Virus record (IMG/VR): IMGVR_UViG_3300040960_001631
Span: 1 to 64,000 of that record
DNA from: an uncultured virus (IMG/VR IMGVR_UViG_3300040960_001631)
Taxonomy: Duplodnaviria > Heunggongvirae > Uroviricota > Caudoviricetes
Strand: one strand, 5' to 3'
DNA: 64,000 nt
The notes under the pieces are model-generated. The model was given only the letters and a program-made list of their open reading frames with translations, was not told the DNA's origin and did no database searches. Positions within the stretch are counted from its first letter, which is position 1. Each line of letters begins with the position of its first letter. Positions 5,447 through 59,890 of this stretch are shown here, one piece after another. The position numbers and the translations under genes were made by a program.

Positions 5447-5452
5447 TTTTTA

Positions 5453-6055
5453 TTATCCTGTCAAACTTTGTACTCGTACTGTATAATCTATTTGTATTAA
5501 ACGGTTGAGTGATTTTTGAACAGGATGGAAAATAACATGTGTTAATAATCTACCAGTTCCTGTTGGACTATAACTCCTTAACCCTAATTCATCAAAAACA
5601 TAAACATCATTTGTATTAGAAGCAGTGTCAAATGCTTGTTGTCCTTCTGGCTCTCCATAATCAAGTAAACAACTTACTAATATATCTGTGTAATTAGTAC
5701 CACTTAGGTGTCTTGTTTCAATTTTATTACGTGTAGGATCAGTGTTGTTTACACTACTGTCATCTACAATTTTTGTATATGTTTGATTATAAAGACTTGC
5801 ATTTGTACCTGTAGAATTTGGAGTAAGATATGTGATAATACCTGTTGGATCAATGTTTGTTCCGCCATTGCCAAAACTCATTTCATACACAAATCCTTCT
5901 CCTGCATTTGCAAGACTTTCGGCAAGTGCAATGCTCATATTTTCGTAATGGATTGCATTTCTTTTGTTTATAAAAACTTCTTGTGAAGTAGGGTCAAATA
6001 TTTTTATATGACCTTGTACTAATATTCCATGATTATCTTGCATTATACTATCCAA
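5453..6055 (-). CDS. Baseplate/fibre-attachment structural protein
   Basis: 200 aa between the giant wedge-like gene and the fibres; FDELGL...LLTHVIFHPVQKSLNRLIQIDYTVR resembles fibre-attachment domains. Confidence 0.5.
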   Translation of the reverse strand: MDSIMQDNHGILVQGHIKIFDPTSQEVFINKRNAIHYENMSIALAESLANAGEGFVYEMSFGNGGTNIDPTGIITYLTPNSTGTNASLYNQTYTKIVDDSSVNNTDPTRNKIETRHLSGTNYTDILVSCLLDYGEPEGQQAFDTASNTNDVYVFDELGLRSYSPTGTGRLLTHVIFHPVQKSLNRLIQIDYTVRVQSLTG

Positions 6056-15000: not shown

Positions 15001-18000
15001 ACTTTGTACAAAAATTTCATCAGTAACATTAAAAATACCGTTGATATTTTTTAGATACAGTACTGCAGAATCTCTATAACTAGCAACATAAAATACTTCA
15101 CCTGAGCCAGTATCACTTTCGATTGTATCGCCTACCTCAGGCAAACTTACAAAAGTATCAATATAAACAATTGCATCAATTTTTTCAACAATTTCGTGTT
15201 CTTGTGTAATAAATTCTTTTGTAATTTCTGGTATTTGATCGTCAAATGGCAAATAGTTATCTAGTGTTGGATATGCATAACTACGCTGGTTCCAAGATAA
15301 ATTAACTTTATCTCCAGAAGCACCGTCTATTCTACCTTTAGTTGCAAGATACATATCTAATGGAGCTCTTACTAGTATATGATCAATACCATTTGTAGGT
15401 AACCCAAATTTACCTGCAACTAACAATTGCAAACTTGTACTATCAGATGTATCAGAAGAAACAAGATTAATATAACTATCAAACGTACTAAATGTTTGTG
15501 TACCTACTTCAGGATTAACTGTAGTATTAGCTTTCCAAAAACTTTCTCTAAACTTAACAATATCATGTTTACTATACTCTACAGTAGGATCAAAATTTCC
15601 TAAAAATTTTGTTTTTATTCCTGACATGTTTGGTATGCCAATAGCAAGATATTCACCGTCTTCACTTACATCTATGCTTGATCCAAAGTTTTCAAAAGAG
15701 TCTTGGTAACTATTTTTTGTTTCTGTAAAATCAATTACCTGTTGTAAAATTAAATTAGCATTTTCTTTTGATCTTCTATATACATAAATTTTACCTGTTT
15801 CATCGCCAGAAGCAGAAACAAACAAATTATTATTATCATCAGTTACAGTCATTACGCCTGTAAAATTTTGAATAGTACTATCCCAATCAGAAGGATTATT
15901 ATATGTTTCTAAATATGAATAAACACTGTTGTTTTTTAAAACTGCCCAATTATTAGTGTTGTCATAATTGTCTATCCAGACTTTTTGCTCATTGTATAAT
16001 TTTTCATTAACAATATCATTTAAATTAGTAGTATCATCAAGACGCACTTCTCTGAGTTTAGAAACTGCAAATGATTGTTCTAAGAAACCTAAAATATCAT
16101 TTTCTATCGGAACTTTTATTTTTGCAATATTTAAATTAATATCTACAATTTTATAAAACCCATTAAGTTCGAATTCTTGTGCTCCGCGAACTGCAATTAA
16201 ATCGCCAATAGACAGCGTATTATCTAGCCATTTGTCCATAGACAACTCATAAATTAATTCGCCGGCATCATTTAAAGTATTTGCTTCTGTAAGTTCTGTT
16301 GCGTTTAAATTTGTGTCAATATGCTGATAAACAGTCCAGTTTTCATTTTCTTGATTTGTGAGATGTAAATAGCCGCCTAGTCTAAATACATTAACATTAC
16401 CTAAAGCTAAATCATCTATAGTGTAAGATTCAAAATCTATATCGTCTTCGCTAACATATCCAGAAGATTTTATGTATTCTTTACTTTGAGACAATACTGG
16501 AAAAACTGAACTAGTATATTCCTGTGGACGATCTAACAAATCTGAAGGTAACACTCTAAAGATATTATCAAATTGCTCTGCAGGAAGATTATCTACAAAT
16601 TCTACAGGCTGCGGACTAGATATCATTTTCTTTTCTTCGAGGTTTAACTCAATTTGTTGAATACTTTCTGAAGAACCGTATATACCTGATCGTACAGCCC
16701 ATTCTTCAAAATATTCTAAACTTTCCTCGCCAGACGCAGTTAAAGGAGCAAACAATTTTGAAAGACTGTTTTTTGTACCTTTTTCTTGGATATAGCCTTT
16801 ATAGAACTTTAGTTGACTTACATCGTCGACTATTAAATTACTTAGGTAATCTCTTTTTTGGAAGCCAATTAATCTAGATGCTAAATTGTGCAGAGATTGA
16901 TCAAAACTAGAAGTATTTGTATCGTAAAAATCGTTAAATTGATTTATTCTATAATCAAAATTTGTTAATAAATCCGGTACTGGTTTTTCATTTAGTTTGT
17001 ACCATTGATTATAATCTACACTTGTTGATCCCTGTATATTTTCTTTAGCAACATAATAATATTCTTTAAATTTTATAAGATCACCAATTTTGTAATCTTT
17101 ATAATTTTCAAAATCTTTAACTATAGCATTATCATACAAAAATCCTGGGATATTTAAGCCGCCATTCCAGTCTTCTGATCTATAACCATTAACTTTAATT
17201 CTTTGTTGTCTATAACCAGAAGCTGGGTGATAAATTACATCATTAAATATTGTTGTGTTAGATAGAACAACAACATGTTCTTTTTGTACAATAGGTAAAG
17301 ATGCTCCATATAATCCAAAGTCTGTATCTTTTATTTCTAATCCAAAACTATTATCTTCTCTTACTACACTGTTAAAGTTTCTATCAAGTGTTTGACCATT
17401 ACTTGAAACAATACTAGTATTATAAAAAGAATCAAATACATCATCTACAACTGAATAATTTGATTTAAAGAATAGTTTATTTGCAGCAGGACTTAAACTA
17501 ATAATTGTTCCATTAGCCCATCCTTGTGTAGTCCAGAACATAAATTCTTTTGTTACAGATACCCAATCATTTACTGTTTCGTCAGTTACGTCATCAAAAA
17601 CAAATCCTTGAGTAGTTAAATAGTTTCCGTAACCAGTAAGAAAATCTACTACTTCTTGAATACTTGTAAGTATAGATCCGTATGGTAATTTTTCTACTTT
17701 ATTGTTGTTAAAGTTTTTGTAAAACTCAGCTGTTCTACCTCCAATTGAAGGTAATGCAGGTAATTTAGCTAGGAAATCTGTTTCAAATATTCCTCCGCTT
17801 GTAAAATCTTGTGTTGCTCTATAATAAGTGTTTAGATGAAAAACTACCTGTCCCTTTTTGTATGGAGTTTGTTCGCTCCATTCTGAAAATTGTTCACTTA
17901 TTCCGCCAACCGATAAAATATAACTTGTTGATCCTACTAATGGTTTATAGTATTGGAAAAATGGTATTTTTGGATTATAACCCGTTACCTTAAATCCTGC

Positions 18001-21000
18001 AGGTGTTTTTTCAATAACTACACCACTATATACAAAGTTGTCTATAGGAGAACTTACATTATAAACTAAATTATAATTTTCTTGTGGTACAAAAATGCCC
18101 GTGGATCCTTTGTCCTGATTAGGAGACTTGCTTTCAAGAATAAGATTTAATTTTTGTTTATCACTAAATCCTCCTAATCTAAATGATAAATTTGTTTCTA
18201 ATGCAGTAACTTCATTTTGATAATCGCTATATACTGTTAATATATCACTTGCTAAAAGATTGTAAATGTAATTTACAAGTCCACAAGTTGTATTTCTAAT
18301 ATTATCTGCATATGTATTTGGAAATACAATGTCTTTATTTCTAAAGAATGTGCCTGAATCTTTATATATGTTTTGCCCTGCAAGGTTCTTTGTAAATCTT
18401 GATAAATCAAATCCTTTTGCTATTGTCTCTGCTGGATTAATTAGTAGCATAGACTTTAATAATGCAAAAGGATAATCGGAACTTTTCCTCCAAGCAGTTT
18501 CTATTGGAGAATAATCGCCAAATGCATAAGATTTAGAAGCATATCTTTGAACAAATCCTTTAACATAATTTATGTTTACTGGCGGTAATAGTTTACCTGT
18601 TTGATCTACTGGTATAAAAGATCTTAGATTTAGACGTTTGAATCTTTCGTCAATTCTACTATTATTAGGATCTGCTATTCTGCCATTTTCTAAATCTTCC
18701 CATAGTACTAGGTTGTTACTTGTATATGGTGCAGGACCGTAAACATCGTTCCACCATGTAGGTTTATTTCTAAATCCTAACATTTCCCACGGATTTGTGT
18801 GAGGACGATCTGTATCAAATGCTTGATTATAAATCCCTCTCCAGAAACCTGGCAAAACTTTGCCATCTGGATTATTAGATTCACTATAATTAAATGTAAA
18901 CCCATTATTTCTATCATAAAATGAGTTTGAAGAATAATCTGCTGCAATGTTGGCTTGCCATCTAGTAAAATCTGTCAACAATAAGTTATTTTGTTTTTCT
19001 AAAGTATTTTGATATCCTCTAAAATCGCCACCTGTAAAATTAAAAATATCAAACTCATTGTCGTCATATGAAATTTTAATATTACTAAAAATTCTTTTCT
19101 CAAATTCAATAATTAAACTGTCTCTAAAATCTTTGTAACATGCAATTTGACTTCCGTCATGTCCTCTAATAAATGCAAAACCGATTGGGTATTCATCATA
19201 ATCTTCTGGATTAGAATCTTTAGAGTAGTTAGCATTAGTTTCAGGCAAATAAAATTTTGTATTTAATCCCTTAAACCACACTGCCTGAGAAGCACCATTT
19301 CCTCCATTGTTACTGTCTGCTGTTTCAGCAGCATTTTTTGATGTATATACTGGATAGGTCCATCCGAACGAATTTTTTAATTGACCTACTTCTACTTCTC
19401 CGTATATTTTAAAAGGACCTGAAATTGTTAAAGATGTTTCATCTATACCGGTGTCATCTATAAAGACTTCCGGATACCAAGATGGATACAATCCTAATTT
19501 ACTAGGTGTAGGAGCAATAAAACTTCCATCTGTATTATTGTATTCGTATATTTCAATTGTGTCGCCATTTTCTTTTGCTGCAATGATCTCTATAAAGCCA
19601 TCTTCATTAAAATTATAGTCTCTACCATGTACAAGTATTTTGTTATTAAGATAAACAGTGATTGCTTTTTCTGACAATGTTGACATTGAAAATGCAGTTG
19701 TTAAAGGAAATAAATTTATTTCTTTATCAATCACATTATATTCTATTCTATTTGCATCGCCATAAGCAAGCATATCGCTAAAATAAAACGGTTGAGAATC
19801 TGCTTTGTCTTTGTTTATTTCTTTTAATATTTTATCTACGTGAGCTTTGGGAGTACCGTCAAATCCTAATGAACTTGCAGTATCTACAAATATTTTTTTT
19901 GTTTTGTTGTATTCTAATGCTGAATATTCAACAGCTTTTATCAAATTGTATTTTTTATTTGTTAAATGGTAAATTGCATTAGCTAAACCTGCTTCGTGTT
20001 TAACAAATCTTTTGCCAAACTGACTTATATTACCTAAATCTCTAAGATTGCTTGTACCAGGGTATGTGCCTGTAAATGATTGAAGATCTTCAATCATGCT
20101 ATCTACATGATCATAAACTTCGCCTAATGTAAATTGATTGATATCTTCATTAAGTGGATTTCTTTCTAAAGAAATAGGTAATTCATAATATCCGTTTTGA
20201 TTTTTATCAGCCGAGCTATGTAATTTTAATTTTAAATAATCTCCTACTGTTAAGTCGTTTACAAATGATACTAAAACCTTATTTTCTGTTTTAACAATAT
20301 TATAATCTGTATTTTTTAATTGTAGTTTATTATTAACATATACTTTGATTTTTAAATCTTCTAATAAATGAGGTTTATTGTAAACATCAACAGCAAAATT
20401 ATTTGTTAAGTTATCAGTAACTTCAATATCTCTAATAACATATTGTGTAAATCTACTTGGAGTAGAATTCCAACCATTTACATATTTAAAAGTTGTTCTA
20501 TCAGAATATTTTCTTAAATTTGATGTAGACGTAGGAACTTCAATTAAATCTTCATCGTTTTGATAAGAAAATACATCTGTAAGCAAATTAAATTCAAAAA
20601 GAATATCGCCTGTATTTTCTATATTTCTATATTGTAACGCAAATCCTAATTCGTTATCTACTGTTCCTGTGCCTTCTTTGTAACTAAAAATTTTAGTGCC
20701 ACTAAATGTGGAACTTTCAAAAATAGTTGTATTACTATATTCATTTCCTTGTGGACAACATAAATCAAATAAAGGTGGTTGATTGACTGCTAATTTTTCT
20801 TGTGCAGCAATCCACATATTTTCATGATAATGAAAAGTTTTTCCTGAATATACTTCACCTAGTTTTACAAATACGTTTTCTAAATCTAACGGAGTAGAAT
20901 CCGCAGTTTCTACAAGATTGATAATTCTTTCAGTACCAATAGTTATAAATTTAACTTCATAAATTTTACCGCTAACTAATTGATCGGTATCAGCTCTGAA

Positions 21001-22608
21001 TAGAACTCTCATACCTTGTGCTAGTTCTACTCCATCAATAATATATCCTTGCGATCCTTGTATAGTACTAAACACATCAGTTGTAAAATTATCTAATAAG
21101 TCTACATCTTGTTTAGCAAATGTTCCGTAATTAAAAAGTTTCAATCCTGCATTAAATTCAATGATAGGACGTTTTGCTCTAAAATTATCATCTAAATTTT
21201 CTGCAATGTTATTATATTCGAAACTTTTTAAAACAACATCTTTATGGAACCATCTGTTATTTCTAGTCCAAGGGTTTTTATCTTGTGATGCTCTGTTTAT
21301 TATTAAATAATCTTTTTCTAAAGGATAGTTATTTGCTGTAGCAAACGGCGATACATCAAATTCTTCTGAATCAAACGGGACTCGAATATTATCTGTATAC
21401 GCAGACGGAATAACTAATTCTCTTTGTGAAATTAATTTAATATTTTCGCCAACGCCTTCTACATACCAATTTCCTTCGTTATATTTTTCAGGAACAACTG
21501 TACCTTGAAATCTAACAAGTAATCCGTTTGTAAAGTCTACACCGTTTGAACTTTGATAATATTTTTTTCCTAGTATATCTGTGTCAATATTTAAAAAGGT
21601 GTTTTCTTCAACGTCAAAGACTCGTATTTGGCCACTTGTGTTTACGTCATTTTGGCTAATATAAAATAGTCTATCAGGTGCATTAGCAGGTATTGTAAAT
21701 TCAATTGTTCCTTTTTCTACATAAACAACTGCAACTTCGTCGCCATCTTCATTAAATTTAGTAATACCATCATTGTATAATGTTGACACATTTTCATCTG
21801 CTTCAAATGTTACACTTCCGGCATCAGGCGTAATAATAAAATCACCAATGTCATATTCGTTGCCATACAAGTCGGCACCGTACAATCCATCTGATCTAAT
21901 TCCTTCTCTGCCTGCAACTAATAGAGCCAATCCTGGTATAAAAGTTCTACTTATAGAAAATGCTAAAGGGTGTCCTGGAGTATCAATTTCAAATCTATAT
22001 GTTTGACCTCTATAAAGTTTTAATTTTGGATTTCTAGTAAACCCATCATTAAATACATATGCAACATTATCGCCCTGGTCTTCTAAAGTAACTGTGTATG
22101 TACTTGTAATATCTCTCGATTGTCCCCTTACAGGAACACTCATAGGACCATTTGGCAGCCAATAGTAGTCTCTAAAATTTGTAAACGTATCCCAATTGAT
22201 ATGCGGAGTCCAACTATAAGTATCTACTGTATTAAGAGAATTATGATTATTTGTATCTGCACCAAAATATCTTAAAATGTTTATGTAGTCTTTGTAATCT
22301 TTTAAAAAATCTACATTTTCTAAATTATCACGTATAACTACTGATGGCTCTAGTTGATAGTTTTCTCTATCATTACTAATTTCTGGTATATAACTATCTG
22401 TAGACTTATAAGAACTAGTATACTTTCTACCTACATAGCCGTCTACTTTTTCGGCAGCGCCGTCTGATATTAACTGATCTAAAGTACCTTGTAGAAACTT
22501 TCTGTTAGCTTCTGTTCTAAAGAACTTAGGTAAAAAATCTATTGACTTTTTCTTTTTACTATTAGGCGTTGGTAAAGCACTTTCGTTTTGATTGTTATTA
22601 TAAGCCAT
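6073..22608 (-). CDS. Giant (5511 aa) baseplate wedge/fibre-like structural protein
   Basis: Uninterrupted 16.5-kb ORF overlapping the gp6-like stop; propeller-like repeats (FGSSIDVSEDGEYLAIG), aromatic W/F-x5-Y-x2-G-D-x-V repeats, PGxGYxxxP repeats. Confidence 0.65.
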   Translation of the reverse strand: MAYNNNQNESALPTPNSKKKKSIDFLPKFFRTEANRKFLQGTLDQLISDGAAEKVDGYVGRKYTSSYKSTDSYIPEISNDRENYQLEPSVVIRDNLENVDFLKDYKDYINILRYFGADTNNHNSLNTVDTYSWTPHINWDTFTNFRDYYWLPNGPMSVPVRGQSRDITSTYTVTLEDQGDNVAYVFNDGFTRNPKLKLYRGQTYRFEIDTPGHPLAFSISRTFIPGLALLVAGREGIRSDGLYGADLYGNEYDIGDFIITPDAGSVTFEADENVSTLYNDGITKFNEDGDEVAVVYVEKGTIEFTIPANAPDRLFYISQNDVNTSGQIRVFDVEENTFLNIDTDILGKKYYQSSNGVDFTNGLLVRFQGTVVPEKYNEGNWYVEGVGENIKLISQRELVIPSAYTDNIRVPFDSEEFDVSPFATANNYPLEKDYLIINRASQDKNPWTRNNRWFHKDVVLKSFEYNNIAENLDDNFRAKRPIIEFNAGLKLFNYGTFAKQDVDLLDNFTTDVFSTIQGSQGYIIDGVELAQGMRVLFRADTDQLVSGKIYEVKFITIGTERIINLVETADSTPLDLENVFVKLGEVYSGKTFHYHENMWIAAQEKLAVNQPPLFDLCCPQGNEYSNTTIFESSTFSGTKIFSYKEGTGTVDNELGFALQYRNIENTGDILFEFNLLTDVFSYQNDEDLIEVPTSTSNLRKYSDRTTFKYVNGWNSTPSRFTQYVIRDIEVTDNLTNNFAVDVYNKPHLLEDLKIKVYVNNKLQLKNTDYNIVKTENKVLVSFVNDLTVGDYLKLKLHSSADKNQNGYYELPISLERNPLNEDINQFTLGEVYDHVDSMIEDLQSFTGTYPGTSNLRDLGNISQFGKRFVKHEAGLANAIYHLTNKKYNLIKAVEYSALEYNKTKKIFVDTASSLGFDGTPKAHVDKILKEINKDKADSQPFYFSDMLAYGDANRIEYNVIDKEINLFPLTTAFSMSTLSEKAITVYLNNKILVHGRDYNFNEDGFIEIIAAKENGDTIEIYEYNNTDGSFIAPTPSKLGLYPSWYPEVFIDDTGIDETSLTISGPFKIYGEVEVGQLKNSFGWTYPVYTSKNAAETADSNNGGNGASQAVWFKGLNTKFYLPETNANYSKDSNPEDYDEYPIGFAFIRGHDGSQIACYKDFRDSLIIEFEKRIFSNIKISYDDNEFDIFNFTGGDFRGYQNTLEKQNNLLLTDFTRWQANIAADYSSNSFYDRNNGFTFNYSESNNPDGKVLPGFWRGIYNQAFDTDRPHTNPWEMLGFRNKPTWWNDVYGPAPYTSNNLVLWEDLENGRIADPNNSRIDERFKRLNLRSFIPVDQTGKLLPPVNINYVKGFVQRYASKSYAFGDYSPIETAWRKSSDYPFALLKSMLLINPAETIAKGFDLSRFTKNLAGQNIYKDSGTFFRNKDIVFPNTYADNIRNTTCGLVNYIYNLLASDILTVYSDYQNEVTALETNLSFRLGGFSDKQKLNLILESKSPNQDKGSTGIFVPQENYNLVYNVSSPIDNFVYSGVVIEKTPAGFKVTGYNPKIPFFQYYKPLVGSTSYILSVGGISEQFSEWSEQTPYKKGQVVFHLNTYYRATQDFTSGGIFETDFLAKLPALPSIGGRTAEFYKNFNNNKVEKLPYGSILTSIQEVVDFLTGYGNYLTTQGFVFDDVTDETVNDWVSVTKEFMFWTTQGWANGTIISLSPAANKLFFKSNYSVVDDVFDSFYNTSIVSSNGQTLDRNFNSVVREDNSFGLEIKDTDFGLYGASLPIVQKEHVVVLSNTTIFNDVIYHPASGYRQQRIKVNGYRSEDWNGGLNIPGFLYDNAIVKDFENYKDYKIGDLIKFKEYYYVAKENIQGSTSVDYNQWYKLNEKPVPDLLTNFDYRINQFNDFYDTNTSSFDQSLHNLASRLIGFQKRDYLSNLIVDDVSQLKFYKGYIQEKGTKNSLSKLFAPLTASGEESLEYFEEWAVRSGIYGSSESIQQIELNLEEKKMISSPQPVEFVDNLPAEQFDNIFRVLPSDLLDRPQEYTSSVFPVLSQSKEYIKSSGYVSEDDIDFESYTIDDLALGNVNVFRLGGYLHLTNQENENWTVYQHIDTNLNATELTEANTLNDAGELIYELSMDKWLDNTLSIGDLIAVRGAQEFELNGFYKIVDINLNIAKIKVPIENDILGFLEQSFAVSKLREVRLDDTTNLNDIVNEKLYNEQKVWIDNYDNTNNWAVLKNNSVYSYLETYNNPSDWDSTIQNFTGVMTVTDDNNNLFVSASGDETGKIYVYRRSKENANLILQQVIDFTETKNSYQDSFENFGSSIDVSEDGEYLAIGIPNMSGIKTKFLGNFDPTVEYSKHDIVKFRESFWKANTTVNPEVGTQTFSTFDSYINLVSSDTSDSTSLQLLVAGKFGLPTNGIDHILVRAPLDMYLATKGRIDGASGDKVNLSWNQRSYAYPTLDNYLPFDDQIPEITKEFITQEHEIVEKIDAIVYIDTFVSLPEVGDTIESDTGSGEVFYVASYRDSAVLYLKNINGIFNVTDEIFVQSTGNFIGFYTQESTYSTSPDIGGFWYIETGFEYANNGRYLDIGRGLVYADVRPAENDDADRPFVYYNIQDTVGNIGEFVLEKNRVSYISNLSYDGDSGPELSNLWVVRVGKSFQDYLTSISAFDSQGSADNKTLQFTFFDSENTGINLESTGFDLDQMNGSQQIYDIWDGYIDFEFTEFDFLGNPYEPVVGDIIEDVQIPRDGSGGLALTSTSTSTAEVVFYKKQFNSVRVYLKVLSGSWNQLNNIGRFQVRRKANEDARGPGDVDRVMGTIDDPSNDIALGTNLVGDLLVFQKDTPFDVVSTPEIFDGEYYFYDETIEGGISIPASPPYNLNKNWTQVYNIPADQRGTSSGLDNEGAVVIYRRQPNAVYEFDYMLTSQYKFANRQFGDEVKIRKQGNTYVLLVGSKGDLDPTTRSDPGSIEIFVTGPETTDVFKKDYQATSYNEGDVVIYKDKYYRANKDTDDSSQLNILDPIVWTNISWRYGVDDNYRGEWDNSFPYEINSIVLKDNSFYVAKTNIATGTEFSDTYWEVTDNNFDYLGYLPNLTNNAFFNEDVFDPATNIIEFSENFDVSKNGEVLVVTVKLESTDSTSNKRLAIYRKENNKYKLYQTISAPISGYDLKDHDLDKFLKDGDGWIYTDSEGNIVTSETGSRTQNLDATPDLYIDRTNWAQSVVIKPDGRQIAVSVPSDDSRKYGQGAVLIYTQVNGEFELSQTIYSPADEVAENFGYQIAFTNENLAVTSLNGDQTIPTTFDNQSTTFDLEFTAFRNIKIDSGVIYVYENLNNSYTYSEKFRFDNATIEFGKRLLAKDNHVYVGMPFYNSNDSKGMFVDYRKPKTKLAWNLYKEIVNPVNLDLIEGAFVYNKTTNRIISYIDYIDPIQGKIAGPAEQEITFKTQTDPAFYNVGTASDREYDPNQTWFDEHVGQVWWNISTARFKYPYQGNIFEQKNNWSVLTEGASINVYEWIESDYLPSQWSNLADTEEGIKLGISGQSLYGDTKYSTKLIYDEVSQIFSTKYYYWVESKRTVPDIENRNLSIFEIVNLIERPRENGYRYISFLGADRIVLNNFENILSGDDLVLNIKYKSQATKDSNLHKEFKLIADGDANSKLDVDIERKWFDSLIGFDTNNRPVPDIKLPETQKYGILNMPRQSMFVNRIEALKQTIERINIIFKDLLIVDDYNTARLFETDLAPTLISSKYDLSVDTVEELQYVSTNNLSPAKLIPIISNGELVRVEIESPGRGYKTVPTININGSGVDAEIKLQINNLGSVISAEVTNTGKNYTNQTTISVRRFGVLVNADSTAKNLWSIYGYNEIDKTWFRTSTQGYDVPKYWNYIDWYAPGYNQFTKINYEIDESYELQELEPEFNSIIKIKSIGSSGWLLLKRIGTTDNEDYTVDYETIGRENGTIQFTSNLYNIQQSTVGYDNRSFDSTLYDTNPAKELRIIFEALRDDIFINELAVEYNQLFLSSLRYVVAEQPLLDWAFKTSFIKINHKLGELDQPATFKKDNLEYFENYVKEVKPYKTNIREFVASYDKTDPTNSVVTDFDAAPFYNTTTQQIETIKTTVFDGALLQVDNILQEYPRKYFADNLGAELSEIKIKNPGSGYIFPPKVIIEDSSNSGATAEAFIGYGKVTAIKVRNPGGRFINPPKITLEGAQTEDGTPATAFAILGKSLVRTPSIKVKFDRVSGEYFIEDLAVSETFTASGVDTIFDLKWPIDVRKNKVKVFVDDQEMLKSTYQVSNREIIDQYTKNKGRLTFNNAPTGNSVIRIEYYKPLEFLEAADRIKFAYNPTDNMFGKELNQLMTGIDYGGVEVKSFDFGGSSGWDSQPWFTDAWDVYENTFEDEVFVSDGSTIAVELRAPLEEGIVYNLYKNGVRIDATDFVAGTPEIPGTDEIPGNPADAEYNNGAISNVTGNGSDFFKRELTVNGVRIMGAGTVGGQTAVPDAWLEKVARMFELFLDPNGAGINESYQRALIKTLSGDAGTYHAGLPTLQRVARGAGADYSPNFLTDQGVIDWNLTNLFDTHVQNDMVWYLNSTGDGYGDGDTDAQEVIEHVFHTLHMHGLPADDIKLYQFLAADWQSGDLYAAMEEAYDAGKWDPSGYQANPDDWKTIADAFEVAAKEYLYLLNFAMFEYTELWDGGSLAPEWSDDMRTQAGILANNPLGYAFHNTYIAPVISKPSLATIRSIFQDGNTPAQDNPALAGVSGYVVDELVGGTDAVAAIPAVPGSSATNVNAITNSITGDGTTTIIETSNLGINLNDGDIFIVRKITSDGSITPDLASYDTALEGGDLAYTTAAGINAEEIITDGDLFVSTSRAKTEELVPGSMFDTLDIKVYTKESGNQGLIICNNIETDITGTFTYNFGLLPGSKDSILVKYDGNVLSKDQYTIDWPNKQLSLEVESNKQLSIILQEQSTSTSVMYSDEITVEETEQYDFVIDYTWDDSLSLSVTVNGELQNITVFDYSTEVAGDNRTAFRLENAATQGQIINYTIFSNNETVDFSQVLTDEFTANGITQTYALSSAPFYSLPTEHNIIVRVDQNILNSGYSRNFTIPESNQREYQLELFQQPAGSLSAEGLKVFLNGEEIFTPEQWRLDIANSSVILGDEYGLPGDNIEIYNISESEYSISGNEVILKDLPGVNSKVYVYQFSNHNLKDIEKIQYDVVKRETLINDEETNTYNRLTAGEILLRKPALDAQYVWITKNSELLIPSVDYYVTDNRTKIQLVEVPAANDVIEVIHFAAEISQDGFSYRQFKDILNRTHFKRLDASTAKLAQPLNYYDLRIEVDNGIDLPVPDKGKNMPGIIFINGERIEYFVKEDNTLRQIRRGTLGTGVPTVHNLGTKVYNQNIEKTVPYKDQNLVANITADGIVNTFNIGYNIESINEIEVFAEGKRLRKNSISVFDPTIDIDSPNGDITIEAEFSVDVDNNSITLLNIPTENSRITIIKKQGQSWTKEEETLGDAQNSIARFLRAGTYEHPE

Positions 22609-35081: not shown

Positions 35082-35930
35082 ATGAAAAAGAAAAATTATC
35101 TTAACAATAAAGACATTTTAAAAGAAATACATAGATCAAAAAATACATTTAATAGTTTTGTAGAAAAAGATTATGCTAATTATGATATAATCTTAGATAG
35201 CGTAGACAAAATTAACATCAGAACTATTGCAGAAGCTAAAAGAAACAAGGCAAAACGGTTAGGTTCTGAAGATTACGAAAGACGTAAGCTAGCAGGTGAA
35301 AAAGTAAAACAAGCGGAATGCGAAGTAGACTATAGATCTATTACTAAAGAAGAATTAATCTTTCGTATAAACACATTTGATCATATTCCAGAAGAGCCAG
35401 GACGTAAAAAGAATCCTAAAACTATAGCAGATACAAAAGTAAAATTAAATTTTCCACCTTTTCAACACTATAAGTTTAACGAAGACGGTGAACTAATCTG
35501 TGTTGGCAAAAGTCATTGGCAAGGTGGTATGGAAAATGGACATTTTAGTCATAAACACGGAAAAGCTACAGATAATTTAGCGTTAATGTGGATGAAACTA
35601 GTTGATCGTTATGCAACAAGAGGAAATGTTCGCGGATATACTTACAATGACGAAATGAAGGGGCAGGCAATCCTGCAACTTTCGCAGATTGGCTTACAGT
35701 TTGACGAATCAAAATCTAACAATCCTTTTGCTTATTACACTGCTGCTGTTACTAACTCTTTTGTCCGTGTTATTAACATTGAAAAACGGAATCAAAATAT
35801 ACGTGACGATATATTAGAACAAAATGGATTAAATCCATCTTATACAAGACAGCACGAAGGCGAATGGGAAGCAAGTATTAAAAGAAATGAAGAAGCTAGC
35901 ATGTCAGCTTTTCCAACAAAAAAAGGTTGA
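35082..35930 (+). CDS. Late-transcription sigma factor (T4 gp55-like)
   Basis: NYLNNKDIL, RGYTYNDEMKGQAILQL...FDESKSNNPFAYYT...SFVRVINIEKR; adjacent to gp47/gp46 as in T4-like phages. Confidence 0.8.
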   Translation: MKKKNYLNNKDILKEIHRSKNTFNSFVEKDYANYDIILDSVDKINIRTIAEAKRNKAKRLGSEDYERRKLAGEKVKQAECEVDYRSITKEELIFRINTFDHIPEEPGRKKNPKTIADTKVKLNFPPFQHYKFNEDGELICVGKSHWQGGMENGHFSHKHGKATDNLALMWMKLVDRYATRGNVRGYTYNDEMKGQAILQLSQIGLQFDESKSNNPFAYYTAAVTNSFVRVINIEKRNQNIRDDILEQNGLNPSYTRQHEGEWEASIKRNEEASMSAFPTKKG

Positions 35931-35983: not shown

Positions 35984-37000
35984 TTGTTTAAAAAAGCTGC
36001 TGTTTTTACAGACATTCACTTTGGTTTAAAAGGCAATAGTCGTATTCATAACGACGACTGTGAAAATTTTGTAGATTGGTTTATCGAAACTGCACATGAA
36101 AACGGTTGTGAGACTGCTATTTTCTGCGGAGATTGGCATCACAATCGTAATTCATTAAATCTTACTACAATGGACGCAACAATTCGTAGTTTAGAAAAAC
36201 TAGGGTCAGCGTTTGACAAATTTTACATGTTTGTAGGCAATCATGATTTGTATTACAAAGACAAACGTGAAGTAAGTTCTACAATATTTGGTAAACACAT
36301 TCCAGGCGTTACATTTGTAGACGAAATGCTTGTAGAAGATGATGTAGCACTTGTTCCGTGGCTTGTTGGAGACGAATGGAAAAAGATAAACAAGGTAAAA
36401 TCTAAGTACATGTTCGGACACTTTGAACTGCCTAGCTTTTATATGAACGCTATGGTACAAATGCCTGATCACGGTGAACTAAAGAGTGAACATTTTGAAA
36501 ATCAAGAGTATGTGTTCTCAGGACACTTTCACAAACGGCAGAAACAGGGTAAGATCCACTACATTGGCAATGCTTTCCCACACAACTATGCAGATGCTTG
36601 GGATGATGACCGTGGTATGATGATACTGGACAGAGAAAACGATGCTGAACCAGAGTATATCAACTGGCCACAGTGTCCAAAGTATCGTACAGTTAAGCTA
36701 TCACAGCTGATTGATGAGAAAGATACACTAATCAAGCCAAACATGTACCTTCGTGTAACATTAGACCTGCCTATTTCGTATGAAGAAGCAAGTTTTATCA
36801 AAGAAACATTTATTTCTGAATACAACTGTAGAGAAATTACACTTATTCCCCAAAAACAAATTGAAGAAATATCAACAGATTTGGATATTGCACAATTTGA
36901 AAGTGTAGATCAAATTGTAGCAAACGAAATTTCAGAATTAGATACAGAAAACTACAATAAAAAAATGTTATTAGACATTTATAATGGATTAGAGCAATAA
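35984..37000 (+). CDS. Recombination endonuclease subunit (gp47/Mre11/SbcD-like)
   Basis: Metallophosphoesterase motifs DIHFG, GDWHH, GNHD, GHFE, SGHFH; TTG start. Confidence 0.92.
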   Translation: MFKKAAVFTDIHFGLKGNSRIHNDDCENFVDWFIETAHENGCETAIFCGDWHHNRNSLNLTTMDATIRSLEKLGSAFDKFYMFVGNHDLYYKDKREVSSTIFGKHIPGVTFVDEMLVEDDVALVPWLVGDEWKKINKVKSKYMFGHFELPSFYMNAMVQMPDHGELKSEHFENQEYVFSGHFHKRQKQGKIHYIGNAFPHNYADAWDDDRGMMILDRENDAEPEYINWPQCPKYRTVKLSQLIDEKDTLIKPNMYLRVTLDLPISYEEASFIKETFISEYNCREITLIPQKQIEEISTDLDIAQFESVDQIVANEISELDTENYNKKMLLDIYNGLEQ

Positions 37001-38773
37001 ATGATTAAAATTAAAGATTTAACTGTAAAAAACTTCATGAGTGTAGGTAATCAAACTCAAGCAGTTGATTTTAACCATGAGCAATTAACCCTTGTGCTTG
37101 GAGAAAACTTAGATCAAGGCGGTGACGATGCAGGATCACGTAATGGAACAGGTAAAACAACAATAATTAATGCATTATCCTATGCATTATACGGTCAAGC
37201 ACTTACAAATATCAAAAGAAACAATTTAATTAACAAAACTAACTCAAAAGGTATGTTAGTTACACTTCATTTTGAAAAAGGTGGTCAAGATTACAGAATT
37301 GAACGAGGTAGATCTCCTAATATACTTAAATTCTTTGTAAATGATCACGAACAAGAGCTCACAGACGAATCACAAGGTGATAGTCGTAAAACACAAGAAA
37401 CAATTAATGACTTGCTTGGCATGAGTCACGACATGTTTAAACATGTTGTTGCTCTTAATACATATTCAGAACCATTTTTATCAATGAGAGCAAACGATCA
37501 ACGTGCTATTATTGAGCAATTACTTGGTATTACTATACTAACTGAAAAAGCAGACGCACTTAAAGACAAAATTAAATTTACAAAAGACTCTATCACAGAA
37601 GAAACGCTAAAAATTGATGCAATAAAATCTGCAAATGAAAAAATTGAAGCTAGCATAGATGGGTTGTTTAGTAGACAACGTGCATGGACTGCAAAAAAAG
37701 AACAAGACATTTCAAAATTACAAAAAGGTATCGATGAATTAGAAAAAGTTGATATTGATCAAGAATTAGATGCACATGAAAAACTAGCAAATTGGACAGA
37801 AATGAACAATGCTATTTTGGCTCTTAATAAAGAAAAAGGCACACTAGAGAGTGCATTACTACGTGCCACTAAATCTGTTGAAAAGGCAGAAAAAGACATC
37901 GCAAATCTTGACGATGCTACTTGTTATACGTGCGGACAAGCACTACACGAAGATAAAAAAGCAGAAATTGAGTCAAGAAAAACAAAAGAACTAAACGATG
38001 CAATAGCATATCAAACAGAAGTTGCTGATAAACTAGAAGATGTGTTAAAAGGGTTAGCAGATATTGGAGATATCAACGGCAAACCTAATACATTTTACGA
38101 AACTGCTAAAGAAGCTTACGATCACAGAAGCAATGTTGACAACTTAAAGCAAGCACTTGACAATAAAGAACAAGAAGACGATCCTTATCAAGCACAAATT
38201 GATGATCTAAAAGAAACAGCACTTCAAGAAATTAATTGGGAACCAGTAAACGAACTAACTTCGTACAAGGAACACCAAGAATTTTTGTTAAAACTACTTA
38301 CAAACAAAGATTCGTTTATTCGTAAGAAGATTATTGATCAGAATCTTGCATATTTAAACAACAGGCTCACATATTATCTTGATAAACTAGGCTTACCACA
38401 CCAAGTAGTGTTCCAGAATGATCTAAATGTAGAAATTACCCAACTAGGACAAGACTTAGACTTTGATAATTTGTCAAGAGGTGAACGTAACCGCTTGATA
38501 CTTGGACTAAGTTTTGCATTCCGTGATGTTTGGGAGTCGTTATATCAAAATATTAATCTATTGTTTATTGACGAGTTGATTGATAGTGGTATGGATACTG
38601 CTGGTGTTGAGAATTCTCTAGGCATCCTTAAGAAAATGACTAGAGAACGAAACAAAAATATATTTTTAATTAGTCACAAAGACGAATTAGTAGGTCGTGT
38701 CAATCACGTACTAAAAGTTATAAAGGAAAATGGCTTTACATCATATGCAAACGATGTAGATATTGTAGAATAA
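37001..38773 (+). CDS. Recombination ATPase subunit (gp46/Rad50/SbcC-like)
   Basis: Walker A NGTGKTT, coiled coil, zinc hook CYTC, signature LSRGE, Walker B LFIDE, H-loop ISH. Confidence 0.93.
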   Translation: MIKIKDLTVKNFMSVGNQTQAVDFNHEQLTLVLGENLDQGGDDAGSRNGTGKTTIINALSYALYGQALTNIKRNNLINKTNSKGMLVTLHFEKGGQDYRIERGRSPNILKFFVNDHEQELTDESQGDSRKTQETINDLLGMSHDMFKHVVALNTYSEPFLSMRANDQRAIIEQLLGITILTEKADALKDKIKFTKDSITEETLKIDAIKSANEKIEASIDGLFSRQRAWTAKKEQDISKLQKGIDELEKVDIDQELDAHEKLANWTEMNNAILALNKEKGTLESALLRATKSVEKAEKDIANLDDATCYTCGQALHEDKKAEIESRKTKELNDAIAYQTEVADKLEDVLKGLADIGDINGKPNTFYETAKEAYDHRSNVDNLKQALDNKEQEDDPYQAQIDDLKETALQEINWEPVNELTSYKEHQEFLLKLLTNKDSFIRKKIIDQNLAYLNNRLTYYLDKLGLPHQVVFQNDLNVEITQLGQDLDFDNLSRGERNRLILGLSFAFRDVWESLYQNINLLFIDELIDSGMDTAGVENSLGILKKMTRERNKNIFLISHKDELVGRVNHVLKVIKENGFTSYANDVDIVE

Positions 38774-38976
38774 TGGAAGACACTCAAGACAAACTAGTAA
38801 AGGCTTATTTAGAATACTTTAAGGCAAATGAAGTTTTTGAACAACGCAATTCTGTGCGAACTCATAGATATGTAAGAAAATGCTTACGTGATATTAGGGA
38901 TTTAGCAAAAAAACGCATGGAAGAGATACACGAAAAACACAACACTACAAGAAAAACCAAAAAAATAGAAAATTAA
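38773..38976 (+). CDS. Small basic helical protein, possibly nucleic-acid binding
   Basis: 67 aa; TAATG coupling to gp46; K/R-rich helix. Confidence 0.6.
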   Translation: MEDTQDKLVKAYLEYFKANEVFEQRNSVRTHRYVRKCLRDIRDLAKKRMEEIHEKHNTTRKTKKIEN

Positions 38977-38999
38977 AATAGGCATCGGTAAGTAAGTTC

Positions 39000-39449
39000 A
39001 TGCAGTGGACTTATGAAGGAAAACAAATTGATATAATACCTGACGAGTATGAAGGATTTGTTTATCTCATAACCAATCTTACCACTGGGCAAAAGTATGT
39101 AGGCAAAAAACTAGCAAAGTTTAAAACAACTAAGCCACCTCTCAAAGGCAAAAAAAACAAACGCAGAGGCTATAAAGAATCAGACTGGCGTGACTATTGG
39201 GGTTCATCTGATAGACTACAAGCTGATGTTGAAGCACTAGGCCCAGAAAACTTCACTAGAGAAATATTATACCTATGTAAAGGCAGAGGTGAGATGTCTT
39301 ACCTTGAGGCAAGAGAGCAGTTTGAGCGCCGTGTATTAGAAACAGATGAGTATTATAACGGAATTATTAACGTAAGAGTTGGCGGCTCAGACAAACTAAA
39401 GCAAGCTCTATTAGAACACACCATACAGGCAAAACAATCCAACACATAA
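39000..39449 (+). CDS. Stand-alone GIY-YIG-family nuclease-like protein
   Basis: GFVYLITNLTTGQKYVGKK (GIY-YIG variant), YWGSS, conserved Glu helix LEAREQF, YYN; basic insert KPPLKGKKNKRRG. Confidence 0.75.
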   Translation: MQWTYEGKQIDIIPDEYEGFVYLITNLTTGQKYVGKKLAKFKTTKPPLKGKKNKRRGYKESDWRDYWGSSDRLQADVEALGPENFTREILYLCKGRGEMSYLEAREQFERRVLETDEYYNGIINVRVGGSDKLKQALLEHTIQAKQSNT

Positions 39450-39830
39450 GGTTGGCGGGCCAGTTTAGAAATACCGCTGTGGAAAAAGCATCCGTATAGG
39501 AGCACACGTAACACGTTGAGCGGCGTTCGGTAGTAGAGCGTTTGATTGACGTAGACTGATTGTTGGCTGTCGAAAAACTGCACATTACACATAAAAACCG
39601 TATGCACTAGGAACGAAGCAACGGGTAGAAGTATAGTGTATTAGCTATAATTTAGAATTATTGCTTGTAAGCTATATTTTGATGTCGACGTAGGTTGGGA
39701 AAGGTCAGAGCCCATTGTGTAGCAGATAAACACCTACTTCCAAGTCTCGGCTGGAGCGGACTCACATGAAGCATTTTCTTGAGTTTGATGGAACCGTAAC
39801 AGGTTCCGTCTGACTGAAACAATCTACATG
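39450..39830 (+). ncRNA. Candidate large structured non-coding RNA
   Basis: No credible ORF; more G/C-rich than flanking spacers; many nested helices with G-U pairs on the + strand (see findings). Confidence 0.6.
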
Positions 39831-39973
39831 AAACTTAAACATTATTACTTCGTAATAATGTGTTTTCTTCATAATAACTTATATCAACAAACGAAGTGTA
39901 ATAGTTTGAGCGATAGCGAAAACTTAATTCGCATAGCGAATTACATAAATATGTTATAGGAGATATTAACACT

Positions 39974-40450
39974 ATGAAAATTAATGAAATGTCTAATTTA
40001 GAACTTGATGAATTTATCCCTTTAACTAAAAGGAGTAGGGCATTACGCAAAGCAGAGAAAAAAGGTGCTGCTGATATGCAAGCCAGTGTTGATAATCTTA
40101 AAAATGAACTAGGATCATATCTTGGCGCTCAAGGAAAGCGTGTAAAAACAGCAACAACTGATGATGTTATTGCATTTCTTAAAACAAAAAATGTAGACAC
40201 TAGTGATATTGGTACTAGTGATCCAATGACTCCAAAACGCATTGATAATATTTTTAAAGTAAAGGTGCAAAGAAAAATGTCGGGGCAACAAGTTACCCCT
40301 AAGCAAGATACTGCAACAAGTAGCAACGACGAAGAAAATCCAAAAATTAGCAATTACGCACAAGCAAGGAAACTTGCTGCTGGATTAAATGCTAAAGAAA
40401 AGCGTAGGCTTGCTGATCAACTTTTAAAAAGTATAAAAACAAAAAATTAA
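39974..40450 (+). CDS. Hypothetical basic protein (late)
   Basis: 158 aa; AGGAG RBS; TAAATA at 39946; N-terminus MKINE. Confidence 0.7.
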   Translation: MKINEMSNLELDEFIPLTKRSRALRKAEKKGAADMQASVDNLKNELGSYLGAQGKRVKTATTDDVIAFLKTKNVDTSDIGTSDPMTPKRIDNIFKVKVQRKMSGQQVTPKQDTATSSNDEENPKISNYAQARKLAAGLNAKEKRRLADQLLKSIKTKN

Positions 40451-59167: not shown

Positions 59168-59375
59168 TATAACAAGACGTTGTTATACGGGTTGGCGCTA
59201 ATAATTTCCAATCTAGAGGAAATAGGCGCACTTGGTTAGGGGTAGTGCCCGGCATGTACTACAGAGATGTAGAGTATGCTAACTGCGATACTAAGCAGAA
59301 CCGAGGTTCTAGGCGTAACAGATGAAAGGTATCTAGACGCATAGTTGGAGGTAAACCCAAGTCCTTCACCCACCC
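59168..59375 (+). ncRNA. Candidate ~190-210-nt multi-branched structured RNA
   Basis: Closing helix plus at least seven internal helices, between a promoter and a terminator. Confidence 0.7.
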
Positions 59376-59382
59376 TTAATTT

Positions 59383-59410: not shown

Positions 59411-59506
59411 TTATTTGATAAATACTTGTGTCTAATAGTGTGCCGCAAGGCGGACTTATGCGGGAACCCACCGCGTAGACCTAGAACGTCAATTAAGGAG
59501 AAAACA

Positions 59507-59890
59507 ATGGGAAGACCAATAAACAAAAGAAAAATAGGCCTTGGCCTAGGAAAAATTGAAGTATCAACTGTAAAATTTGCAGCTGGCGGCGAAGTAACTA
59601 ATGCATGGATTGTGTCACAAAGATCATCTAATAAATTTATTGTATCAGACGGTACTAAAACAGAAACTTGTACACTAGTTAACAAGGCATCAGGTGCATT
59701 AGGTGCTAGCGAATTTAATATTAATGCTGTTTTAGACGACTCTACTGTTGTACAAGTTACCAAACTTTATAATAGAAAAATTCAATATGAAGCAGGCACA
59801 GCTGATGTAGATACTATAAAGTATAATGTTGGACCAGGCGACGAAAACGATGATTCAACAGGAACAGCAACAGTTCCAGTTCAAGACTAA
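59507..59890 (+). CDS. Putative virion structural protein
   Basis: Start MGRPINKRK after AAGGAG (the track ORF from 59345 crosses a terminator); TAAATA at 59419. Confidence 0.65.
   Translation: MGRPINKRKIGLGLGKIEVSTVKFAAGGEVTNAWIVSQRSSNKFIVSDGTKTETCTLVNKASGALGASEFNINAVLDDSTVVQVTKLYNRKIQYEAGTADVDTIKYNVGPGDENDDSTGTATVPVQD

Follow-up and report, generated by a model that had tools for sequence, protein, structure and literature searches.

What is encoded in the 524 nucleotides (nt) that lie downstream of the gene for a small GIY-YIG nuclease in a marine, uncultured T4-like phage? The question arises from a window of 64,000 nt, the whole stretch of DNA that we analyzed (positions 1 to 64,000 of IMG/VR record IMGVR_UViG_3300040960_001631), in which the nuclease gene ends at 39449 and the next real gene, an open reading frame (ORF) of 158 amino acids (aa), occupies 39974–40450. 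A preliminary description of this locus had read helices in the intervening sequence and proposed a nuclease-RNA system. We report here that positions 39450–39833 (plus strand, 5′ limit approximate) belong to a new family of large pseudoknotted phage RNAs, the form found in the window being called class A, and that these RNAs carry two identical 7-nt sequences, tags X and Y, which change in parallel among relatives. The reading that we favor, with about even confidence, is that of an autonomous RNA acting in trans, with the nuclease as a fixed neighbor.

A conserved non-coding region downstream of the GIY-YIG gene

The length of 524 nt agrees with the estimate of about 520 nt without a credible ORF in the preliminary description, and there was no plus-strand ORF of 30 or more aa between 39450 and 39827. 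A scan of viral contigs with the protein as query gave 80 loci with GIY-YIG proteins 87–100% identical to that of the window; in each locus reaching far enough, DNA similarity covered the whole gap to about 39840–39950 and then ended, and the 158-aa gene beyond this end was not conserved. Conservation of the gap equaled or exceeded that of the neighboring genes, and its G+C content was 0.46–0.47 vs about 0.29–0.36 in the flanks. No open frame was kept in any of the six frames across 49 relatives, in which the aligned span ranged from 431 to 587 nt with differences that were not multiples of three. As candidates for coding sequence we considered and rejected three minus-strand ORFs (84, 72, and 54 aa) and a 15-codon ORF beginning at an ATG in tag X, none of which was conserved. 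The plus strand folded with a z-score of −2.72 (1 of 100 shuffles was as good), and the minus strand with a z-score of −0.92 (16 of 100). Altogether we gathered 90 distinct full-length relatives, of 328–475 nt.

The region from 38900 to 40050 was scanned against Rfam 15, whose 4227 models include HEARO, group I and II introns, GIR1, GOLLD, ROOL, self-cleaving ribozymes, and riboswitches. Nothing reached a gathering score, and with E up to 10 there were just four matches, all at chance level (E 0.47–7.3), including a mir-126 match on the terminator-like hairpin described below (E 0.47), which we rejected for that reason. No family was matched, and the novelty anticipated in the preliminary description stands. 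A blastn comparison with 50,697 phage records gave no match, ARAGORN called neither tRNA nor tmRNA genes in the window, and in those parts of the literature that a full-text search reached there was no description of the RNA family, of the paired-tag rule, or of an RNA-linked GIY-YIG protein. The RNA was single-copy within the 120-kb record from which the window comes. Among bacterial and archaeal genomes there were four matches, none taken as a host copy: three were T4-like phage contigs within metagenome-assembled genomes (MAGs), with gp46 and GIY-YIG genes upstream, and the fourth was a G+C-rich chance match inside a coding region. Loci L211, L212, and L214, on contigs of 73, 335, and 153 kb, bear the MAG labels Crocinitomicaceae and Neomarinimicrobiota, a placement that may be a binning error or a hint about hosts; the RNA of L212 has a quite different 5′ domain.

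Secondary structure of the RNA

The structure was assessed on the alignment of 49 sequences, for which we propose 76 pairs in 15 helices. Standard pairs filled 91.9% of the cells in the proposed structure vs 33.6–37.7% when the partners were slid by one to three columns; the corresponding values were 22 vs 2–8 for pairs with compensatory change and 240 vs 6–29 for cells with compensatory change. In 500 column shuffles the observed value was never reached on four of five measures; the fifth, the number of further pair types, was not above the shuffles (479 of 500 were as high). RNAalifold predicted 56 pairs, 12 of them with two-sided changes. In helix P3 two adjacent G-U pairs (UG in 47 of 49 and GU in 46 of 49 sequences) would be A-C on the other strand; the many G-U pairs therefore fit the plus strand only, as the preliminary description had proposed. 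The highly structured non-coding RNA postulated there is thus real: pairing, compensatory change, and the lack of a conserved ORF all agree, and the conservation and covariation that it had suggested looking for downstream of homologs are both present in the alignment.

The 5′ end of the RNA is marked by a conserved element, ACATAAGG, which spans the GIY-YIG stop codon (39447–39449). The 5′ domain, P1 to P4, is variable. P1 (39454–39478) is a hairpin of the form (G/A)GCGG...CCGCT, 99.6% paired, in which a G-U pair has changed to A-U in 13 of 49 sequences. P2 and P2a form the next hairpin (39479–39507), in which pair 41:71 is UA in 40 and AU in 9 sequences and all five pairs of the inner stem show compensatory changes. 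P3 (39513–39552) is a stem around a variable insert, P3a, with three compensatory pairs (among them UA 29/CG 19 and AU 27/GC 22), and P4 (39554–39571) is a hairpin with a conserved TGTT-containing loop, 96.7% paired, whose pair 143:155 is AU in 17 and UA in 17 sequences.

The core, consisting of P5, P6, P8, P9, P11, and the single-stranded tail, is very conserved. P5 is a long-range, strongly covarying helix that joins 39578–39581 and 39586–39591 to 39716–39725; its partner strands occur as CTGC/GCAG, CCGC/GCGG, ACACAAA/TTTGTGT, TACACA/TGTGTA, AGTACA/TGTACT, and AGTTCA/TGAACT, and in more distant relatives as GTGCA/TGCAC and TATGCTAC/GTAGCATA. P5 crosses P8 (39690–39695 with 39732–39737), and the core is therefore a pseudoknot; P5 is absent from the RNAalifold prediction. 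The P6 hairpin (39598–39624), with its conserved loop AGGAACGAAGC, is 100% paired with changes such as UA 27/CG 21 and CG 34/GC 15. P8 (39690–39737), the stem GTAGGT/ACCTAC, encloses the P9 hairpin (39697–39713; loop AAAGGTCAGAG) and the 3′ strands of P5. P8 is invariant in most class A RNAs, its second pair being U-A, G-C (L086 and L115), or, in the type 2b phages described below, C-G; P8, P9, and the 9-bp P11 hairpin (39787–39810; 99.3% paired) vary little within class A. The sequence GGTCA in the P9 loop (39703–39707) can pair with TGACT (39811–39815); this proposed helix, PK1, is 99.6% paired (G-U 41, G-C 8) in the 49 sequences, and because it showed no two-sided change we treat it as a likely second pseudoknot, between loop and tail, that is suggested by conservation of its two strands. 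Downstream of the RNA lies a terminator-like hairpin of 10 bp followed by a T-run (39839–39869), read from the sequence; stem variants in relatives keep their pairing and the stem covaries in the alignment. A consensus terminator scan missed this hairpin because it has only two G-C pairs.

The variable peripheral hairpin P7 (39628–39680), with covarying pairs 39633:39675 and 39637:39671, ranges in relatives from GCGAAAGC to more than 100 nt, and both P3a and P7 behave as swappable peripheral hairpins. Assembly breaks cluster in the RNA (39470–39790): 23 of the 80 related contigs end 21–340 nt past the GIY-YIG stop codon, and many of the contigs found through gp46 (see below) likewise stop within the ORF or the RNA. 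The breaks are likely to arise because near-identical blocks alternate with swappable hairpin cassettes among co-occurring strains.

Most of the helices given in the preliminary description survived this analysis. GCGG/CCGC, ACGTTGA/TTGACGT, CCGT..ACGG, the hairpin at 39628–39680, GTAGGT/ACCTAC enclosing GGG/CCC, and GATGGAACC/GGTTCCGTC were each supported by covariation or strict conservation. The long-range helix GATTGTT/AACAATC was conserved and 87% paired but showed no compensatory changes. Three other helices were not supported: GGACTCA/TGAGTTT was paired in only 49% of the cells, TGTCGA/TCGACG clashes with the covarying hairpin 39554–39571, and in CCAAC/GTTGG, which had been drawn around the stop codon, the G/A position pairs with T39478 instead. 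The earlier list lacked the hairpins 39479–39507 and 39554–39571 and the pseudoknot helices 39578–39591/39716–39725 and 39703–39707/39811–39815.

Two identical tags that change in parallel

Alignment of the 3′ core of 36 diverse sequences exposed two direct repeats about 60 nt apart on the plus strand, each consisting of a 7-nt tag behind a short pyrimidine-rich prefix. In the window, repeat X (39760–39771) reads ACTC, ACATGAA, G, and repeat Y (39822–39833) reads ATCT, ACATGAA, A. The tag of X was identical to that of Y in 88 of the 90 distinct full-length class A RNAs, in six variants: ACATGAA (71 sequences), ACATAAT (9), ACGTGAA (3), ACATGAT (3), ACATGAG (1), and ACATAAA (1). One further locus had the tag GTATGAA. 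The same rule held in the more distant forms of the RNA described below: class B has GAATAAT after ACTC and ATCT alike and, in L241, GAATGAT in both places; type 2b has ACAGAAA in both and type 2a ATCAAGT in both. At least 11 tag variants are thus known, with X and Y changing in parallel. For the ACGTGAA and ACATGAT sequences, the tag columns alone distinguish them within the RNA.

Several possible partners of the tags were considered. Pairing of X with Y was rejected since the ACATAAT variant breaks it, and the P4 loop was rejected since it is unchanged when the tags change; no third strand within the RNA pairs or covaries with the tags. A complement in cis was rejected, none being found at a consistent place in loci that reached, where possible, 1.3–4 kb to each side. 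The start region of the GIY-YIG gene was rejected as a target because start contexts vary independently of the tags. Finally, the idea of a rolling-circle coding unit was rejected, as the spacing of the tags (54–67 nt) has no triplet bias (25, 23, and 41 of 89). No reverse transcriptase was found in the 120-kb record. Matched take-off and landing codons and template-switch repeats are examples of one strand pairing with two identical sites, and on general grounds identical sites of the same sense would be expected where one external complementary strand must pair with both. The only candidate for the guide-like variable segment that the preliminary description had suggested looking for is the pair of identical 7-nt tags; there is no terminal variable guide, and the tags are also present in nuclease-free phages.

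Linkage with the GIY-YIG gene in T4-like phages

The association of RNA and nuclease was examined from both sides. A 21-nt invariant core motif of the RNA matched at least 120 viral contigs, of which 80 were examined; a GIY-YIG ORF was present in 72 of the 74 loci with at least 400 nt upstream, ending 197–585 nt before the motif, and the two exceptions (L109 and L116) belong to another phage type. When loci were instead collected through the gp46-like ATPase gene, which in the window lies at 37001–38773, 29 of the 80 loci examined were evaluable, having at least 3 kb downstream, and all 29 contained the GIY-YIG gene followed by the class A RNA or a divergent form: 21 had the class A core, one (L222) had a damaged RNA, and seven had the form that we call class B. 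In L222 (about 5227–5771) the ORF matches residues 65–149 only and the RNA lacks the equivalent of 39629–39735; this double damage reflects either joint decay or an assembly artefact. Six other loci, L079 (2947–3183), L093, L097, L100, L140, and L150, have about 240–330 nt extra between the GIY-YIG stop codon and the start of the RNA, and in these loci the last residues of the ORF differ, the match ending at residue 137–146.

Class B is a conserved non-coding region of about 450 nt found at the same place in its seven loci, where the GIY-YIG protein is still 81–85% identical. It showed no BLAST similarity to class A, but the two share six motifs in equal order: a hairpin with AGGTCA in its loop, GGCTG.AGCG.ACTC plus tag, a G+C-rich 8-bp hairpin, which stands in place of P11, TGACT, CAATCT plus the same tag, and the terminator hairpin. 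From these colinear motifs and the tag rule we take class B to be a divergent member of the RNA family.

The RNA in phages of another type

A homologous RNA was present in five contigs of a small siphovirus-like phage type, which we call type 2 (types 2a and 2b). A covariance model of the class A core scored 166.2 bits on the window, 141.7 on L212, 115.2 on L206, and 105.4 on L204, scores that are not independent because the model alignment contained L212, L204, and the type 2b locus L205. The same model gave a 33-bit match on the minus strand of the window (39765–39890), which we put down to palindromic hairpins. The case for homology in type 2 rests mainly on the element-by-element alignment, in which a P1-like hairpin, P4, P5, P6 with the same loop motif, P8, P9, P11, and the tail appear in the same order, and on new compensatory changes in P5 and P8. 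Both motifs of PK1 are retained in type 2 and in class B. The core order that we propose for the family, and which the window has, is a P5 strand, P6 (loop AGGAACGA), P8/P9 (loop AGGTCA), the P5 return strand, GGCTG..ACTC plus tag, a hairpin, TGACT, and ATCT plus the same tag.

In type 2 the gap that holds the RNA measures about 900 nt, and beyond it come a 99-aa ORF and then the small and large terminase genes. In L206 a sigma-70 promoter matching the consensus at 12 of 12 positions (TTGACA, 17 nt, TATAAT; 2554–2582) lies about 260 nt 5′ of P1 and precedes a 65-aa ORF that is followed by the RNA; this ORF, found in type 2b, is not conserved in type 2a and has no match among Pfam families. No GIY-YIG match was found at E up to 1 in any of the five type 2 records, the longest of which, at 25,584 bases, is 85% complete by estimate and has siphovirus-like structural genes only. 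In the window the GIY-YIG stop codon comes from the element ACATAAGG; these phages have that element but not the ORF, and therefore it is the ORF that runs into the RNA gene, not the reverse.

The GIY-YIG protein

The 149-aa protein (39000–39449, plus strand) is of the SegE type (PHROG 447). It matched the Pfam family SegE_GIY-YIG (PF19835) with E 2.8e-34, residues 3–123 aligning with positions 1–123 of the 123-position profile, so that the profile is covered over its full length, and it matched phrog_447 with E 1.2e-38 over positions 9–143 of 148. Only 26 residues follow the catalytic domain, and the C-terminal DNA-binding domain of Seg and I-TevI enzymes is lacking, as had been proposed; the very basic insert that had also been proposed disappears on comparison with the family profile, to which the protein aligns end to end. 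Its relatives span 143–149 aa. The median ratio of nonsynonymous to synonymous substitution rates (dN/dS) against 61 distinct relatives was 0.07, a sign of strong purifying selection, and the nuclease is clearly functional.

The family extends far beyond the T4-like lineage in question. A tblastn search with the protein matched 817 phage records, in 286 of which the match extended over at least 80% of its length, and homologues occupy unrelated contexts in other phages. The closest named one, in Methylophilales phage Melnitz (146 aa, 65% identity), comes after the small ribonucleotide reductase chain and has its next gene 148 nt on; that of Synechococcus phage S-SRM01 (143 aa) lies near a lysin gene and is followed by an 88-nt gap. 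The class A core model found no match in either GIY-YIG neighborhood.

Genomic setting

The record that contains the window has 119,997 bases and an estimated completeness of 34% (CheckV). Its gene content, including baseplate, portal, prohead protease, and major head proteins, is that of a T4-like myovirus without a close cultured relative, the top match to gp46 being only 49% identical. Upstream of the GIY-YIG gene are genes for a late sigma factor (35082–35927), a gp47-like phosphoesterase (35984–37000), and the gp46-like ATPase, followed by a 67-aa ORF (38773–38976) that ends 24 nt before the GIY-YIG start. The flanks of the GIY-YIG and RNA pair (38774–39000 and 39926–40450) are hyperplastic: 0.25–1.7 kb of extra DNA separates gp46 from GIY-YIG in some relatives (L009, L020, L026, L038, L047, and others), and in most relatives the 158-aa gene is swapped for unrelated sequence. 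Most relatives also have, 5–12 nt 5′ of the GIY-YIG ATG, an element of the form ..GGCA.CGGTAAGTA.. or similar to TATATAA (38978–38999 in the window), which we take to resemble a T4-type late promoter and which would presumably give a nearly leaderless mRNA. Beyond the RNA, 5′ of the variable next gene, a 23-nt box, GTTTGAGCG..AGCGAAAAC (39903–39925, plus strand), is kept in class A and class B loci with one covarying pair (CG 39/UA 10); it could serve the following gene as promoter or operator. Elsewhere in the window we noted a minus-strand ORF of about 5,510 codons within the tail and baseplate region (6076–22608) and two plus-strand RNAs above their Rfam gathering scores, a manA RNA (59170–59377, 81.2 bits) and, 62 nt from it, a freshwater-2 RNA (59439–59509, 55.1 bits).

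Matches in RNA libraries

Words of the region were shared by 23 RNA runs from 19 studies and by one run of unclassified kind. Relatives of the ORF and of the RNA turned up in contigs of four metatranscriptome runs from four studies (labels: salt marsh, estuary, freshwater, and seawater), and one contig of 319 nt from an RNA library spans 39469–39831 in the shortest form of P7. On the metatranscriptome check suggested in the preliminary description these contigs give a weak hint only, because such libraries can contain DNA and the contigs show neither ends nor strand. In the four runs 38800–38975 and 39944–40100 were covered by no contig, and depth was greater for the contig over the RNA than for those over the ORF; holes and contig depth are unusable, and nothing was drawn from them.

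DISCUSSION

The RNA at 39450–39833 would, in our favored reading, be one member of a family of doubly pseudoknotted non-coding RNAs of about 330–475 nt in marine, estuarine, and salt-marsh phages, and a functional unit by itself. It would be cotranscribed with the GIY-YIG gene, end at the terminator-like hairpin, and act in trans. The tags would be single-stranded specificity elements that fit one external partner, either a nucleic acid or a moving complementary strand, and they would change together because both must fit that partner. The nuclease would be a permanent neighbor within the lineage on which the function of the RNA does not depend, and its gene may be a free-standing, homing-type gene that settled next to a highly conserved RNA gene. 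A number of observations weigh against this reading. In the T4-like lineage we never met the RNA without GIY-YIG (72 of 74 loci found through the RNA, both exceptions being of the other phage type, and 29 of 29 found through gp46), the two remain together although both flanks are variable, and the GIY-YIG stop codon falls inside the conserved 5′ element of the RNA. Both members of the pair are damaged in L222. The absence of the nuclease from type 2 is not proven because the records are fragments, and class B is tied to the family by colinear motifs and the tag rule, the class A core model having detected none of eight loci at E up to 1. Furthermore, the complement of the tags is absent from the window, from the 120-kb record, and from the coding strand of the 25.6-kb type 2 record.

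Much of this would fit a partnership of the kind first proposed for the locus, in which the domain-less GIY-YIG protein binds the RNA, the RNA serves for target recognition or as scaffold with the tags as its specificity segment, and type 2 phages use another effector or one of the host. Besides the strict linkage, the retention of the pair between hyperplastic flanks, the overlap of the ORF end with the RNA, and the joint damage in L222, this proposal draws support from a protein that has a catalytic domain only and yet, at dN/dS 0.07, is unlike a sporadic selfish homing gene, and from a short variable segment within an otherwise invariant scaffold. We nevertheless consider it unlikely. The preliminary description had held that an RNA independent of the gene would refute a nuclease-RNA system, and the RNA with its tags is present in five type 2 records without a GIY-YIG match; conversely, a protein of the same length is widespread among the 817 phage records, and the RNA is absent from the two neighborhoods examined. 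Constant company thus holds in the T4-like lineage, but not beyond it, and the proposal is supported in part only. In class B the protein is still 81–85% identical while the RNA has diverged past detection by BLAST and by the model. Two identical tags cannot address both strands of a duplex, 7 nt is very short for a guide, and the phage record offers no target complement. Quite improbable, in our estimation, is a self-processing or mobile ribozyme, either intron-like or able to cleave and ligate itself, with its reaction sites at X and Y, whose identity would permit scarless excision or joining, and with GIY-YIG as the homing nuclease, as in group I introns. The compact, doubly pseudoknotted, conserved core with variable peripheral hairpins looks the part, as do the occurrence in unrelated phages both with and without the nuclease gene, the identical direct repeats that flank the most conserved hairpin and a pseudoknot strand, and the classical pairing of GIY-YIG enzymes with group I introns. 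However, no Rfam model of group I, group II, GIR1, or self-cleaving RNAs matched even at E up to 10, no host gene is interrupted (the 67-aa ORF is separate and ends 24 nt upstream of the GIY-YIG gene, and behind the RNA comes a terminator-like hairpin), the RNA contains no complement of the tags that might serve as a guide, ACATAAT variants lack the G that elsewhere comes after CAT in Y so that there is no conserved terminal G, and no form with X joined to Y appeared among the contig joints listed.

A cis-regulatory role, as a 3′ untranslated region or attenuator for the GIY-YIG transcript or for the following module (baseplate here, terminase in type 2), would account for the constant position of the RNA at a boundary of gene modules and for its end in a terminator-like hairpin, and X and Y could then be alternative partners in a switch; but some 390 nt with ten helices and two pseudoknots far exceed what known attenuators need, the RNA is kept while the downstream gene differs among relatives and the upstream gene differs between phage types, and no third strand covaries with X and Y. 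We find this role more doubtful still. It is highly improbable that the conserved unit is no RNA at all, being instead the decayed C-terminal, DNA-binding half of a Seg-type enzyme or a packaging or replication site acting as DNA. Seg and I-TevI enzymes are longer, the gap has about the length of a lost domain, and in type 2 the element lies upstream of the small terminase gene, the usual position of pac or cos. Against this, the gap is as conserved as the neighboring genes or more so, its changes are compensatory in helices and not codon-like, its indels are not multiples of three, its G-U pairs fit the plus strand only, and the family's own profile has just 148 positions.

A bolder version may also be stated, which we regard as improbable: the RNA could be a programmable specificity module in which twin 7-nt tags on a double-pseudoknot scaffold select or join complementary nucleic acids, with the GIY-YIG protein as effector in the T4-like phages. 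If true, this would make it the first GIY-YIG system directed by an RNA, and its twin-tag logic would differ from those of CRISPR, OMEGA, and bridge RNAs. Large, intricately folded, covarying RNAs are rare, and RNase P, group I and II introns, omega RNAs, and GOLLD/ROOL each opened a field. The present RNA is abundant in environmental phage data, a single 21-mer finding it in at least 120 viral contigs, and it crosses phage lineages; the parallel change of its tags offers a direct experimental handle. Were it to work with the nuclease, it would represent a new type of RNA-directed enzyme; were it to work alone, as we favor, it would constitute a new class of non-coding RNAs in phages, and its partner should point to a new interaction between phage and host.

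Comparison with known systems

The HEARO and IscB/TnpB omega RNAs (RF02033) are large structured RNAs beside a small HNH or RuvC nuclease gene. The locus described here resembles them in having a large structured RNA next to a small nuclease gene and a conserved scaffold with a short variable segment, but it differs in that the RNA matches no Rfam family, the nuclease is of the GIY-YIG type, and there are no transposon ends; moreover, the variable segment is a duplicated internal 7-mer instead of a terminal guide, and the RNA also occurs without the nuclease. Neither hallmark of OMEGA systems, a variable guide complementary to a target beside the element and the constant co-occurrence of RNA and nuclease, was found. 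Group I introns with GIY-YIG genes, such as T4 td with I-TevI, likewise join a GIY-YIG gene to a pseudoknotted RNA in a T4-like phage, here one that looks catalytic, and are also known both with and without the endonuclease gene. In contrast to them, our RNA matches no intron model at E up to 10, splits no host gene, is followed directly by a terminator-like hairpin, and has a helix order other than P3–P9, and the protein lacks a DNA-binding domain; flanking exons and a conserved terminal G, which define group I introns, are both missing.

The free-standing T4 gene segB has tRNA and stable RNA (rnaC/rnaD) genes around it. Our locus shares with it a free-standing GIY-YIG gene beside conserved structural RNA genes in a T4-type genome, but here the nuclease is universal in its lineage and under strong purifying selection, and the RNA is much larger and not tRNA-like. 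Seg and I-TevI genes have a sporadic, mobile distribution; here, presence in 29 of 29 loci at dN/dS 0.07 stands beside homologues in unrelated contexts in other phages. GOLLD and ROOL (PMC12286853) are large ornate RNAs, often phage-borne. Like them, the present non-coding RNA is large and intricately folded, is associated with phages, and combines a conserved core with a variable half; unlike them, it is smaller, matches no Rfam family, has paired identical tags, and belongs to marine T4-like and small siphovirus-like phages. For the tags, the nearest parallels are systems with matched sites, namely the take-off and landing codons of T4 gene 60, DR1 and DR2 of hepadnaviruses, the template repeats of DRT2, and seqA and seqC of P4. 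In these, too, a short direct repeat occurs in two copies separated by tens of nucleotides, and the copies must not diverge, since one complementary strand has to pair with both. Our RNA departs from gene 60 in having no reading frame through X and a spacing of 54–67 nt without a bias toward multiples of three, from the template-switching systems in the lack of a reverse transcriptase in the 120-kb record, and from P4 in the lack of a complement in cis like seqB; what it would share with all of them is the logic of one strand that pairs with two identical sites.

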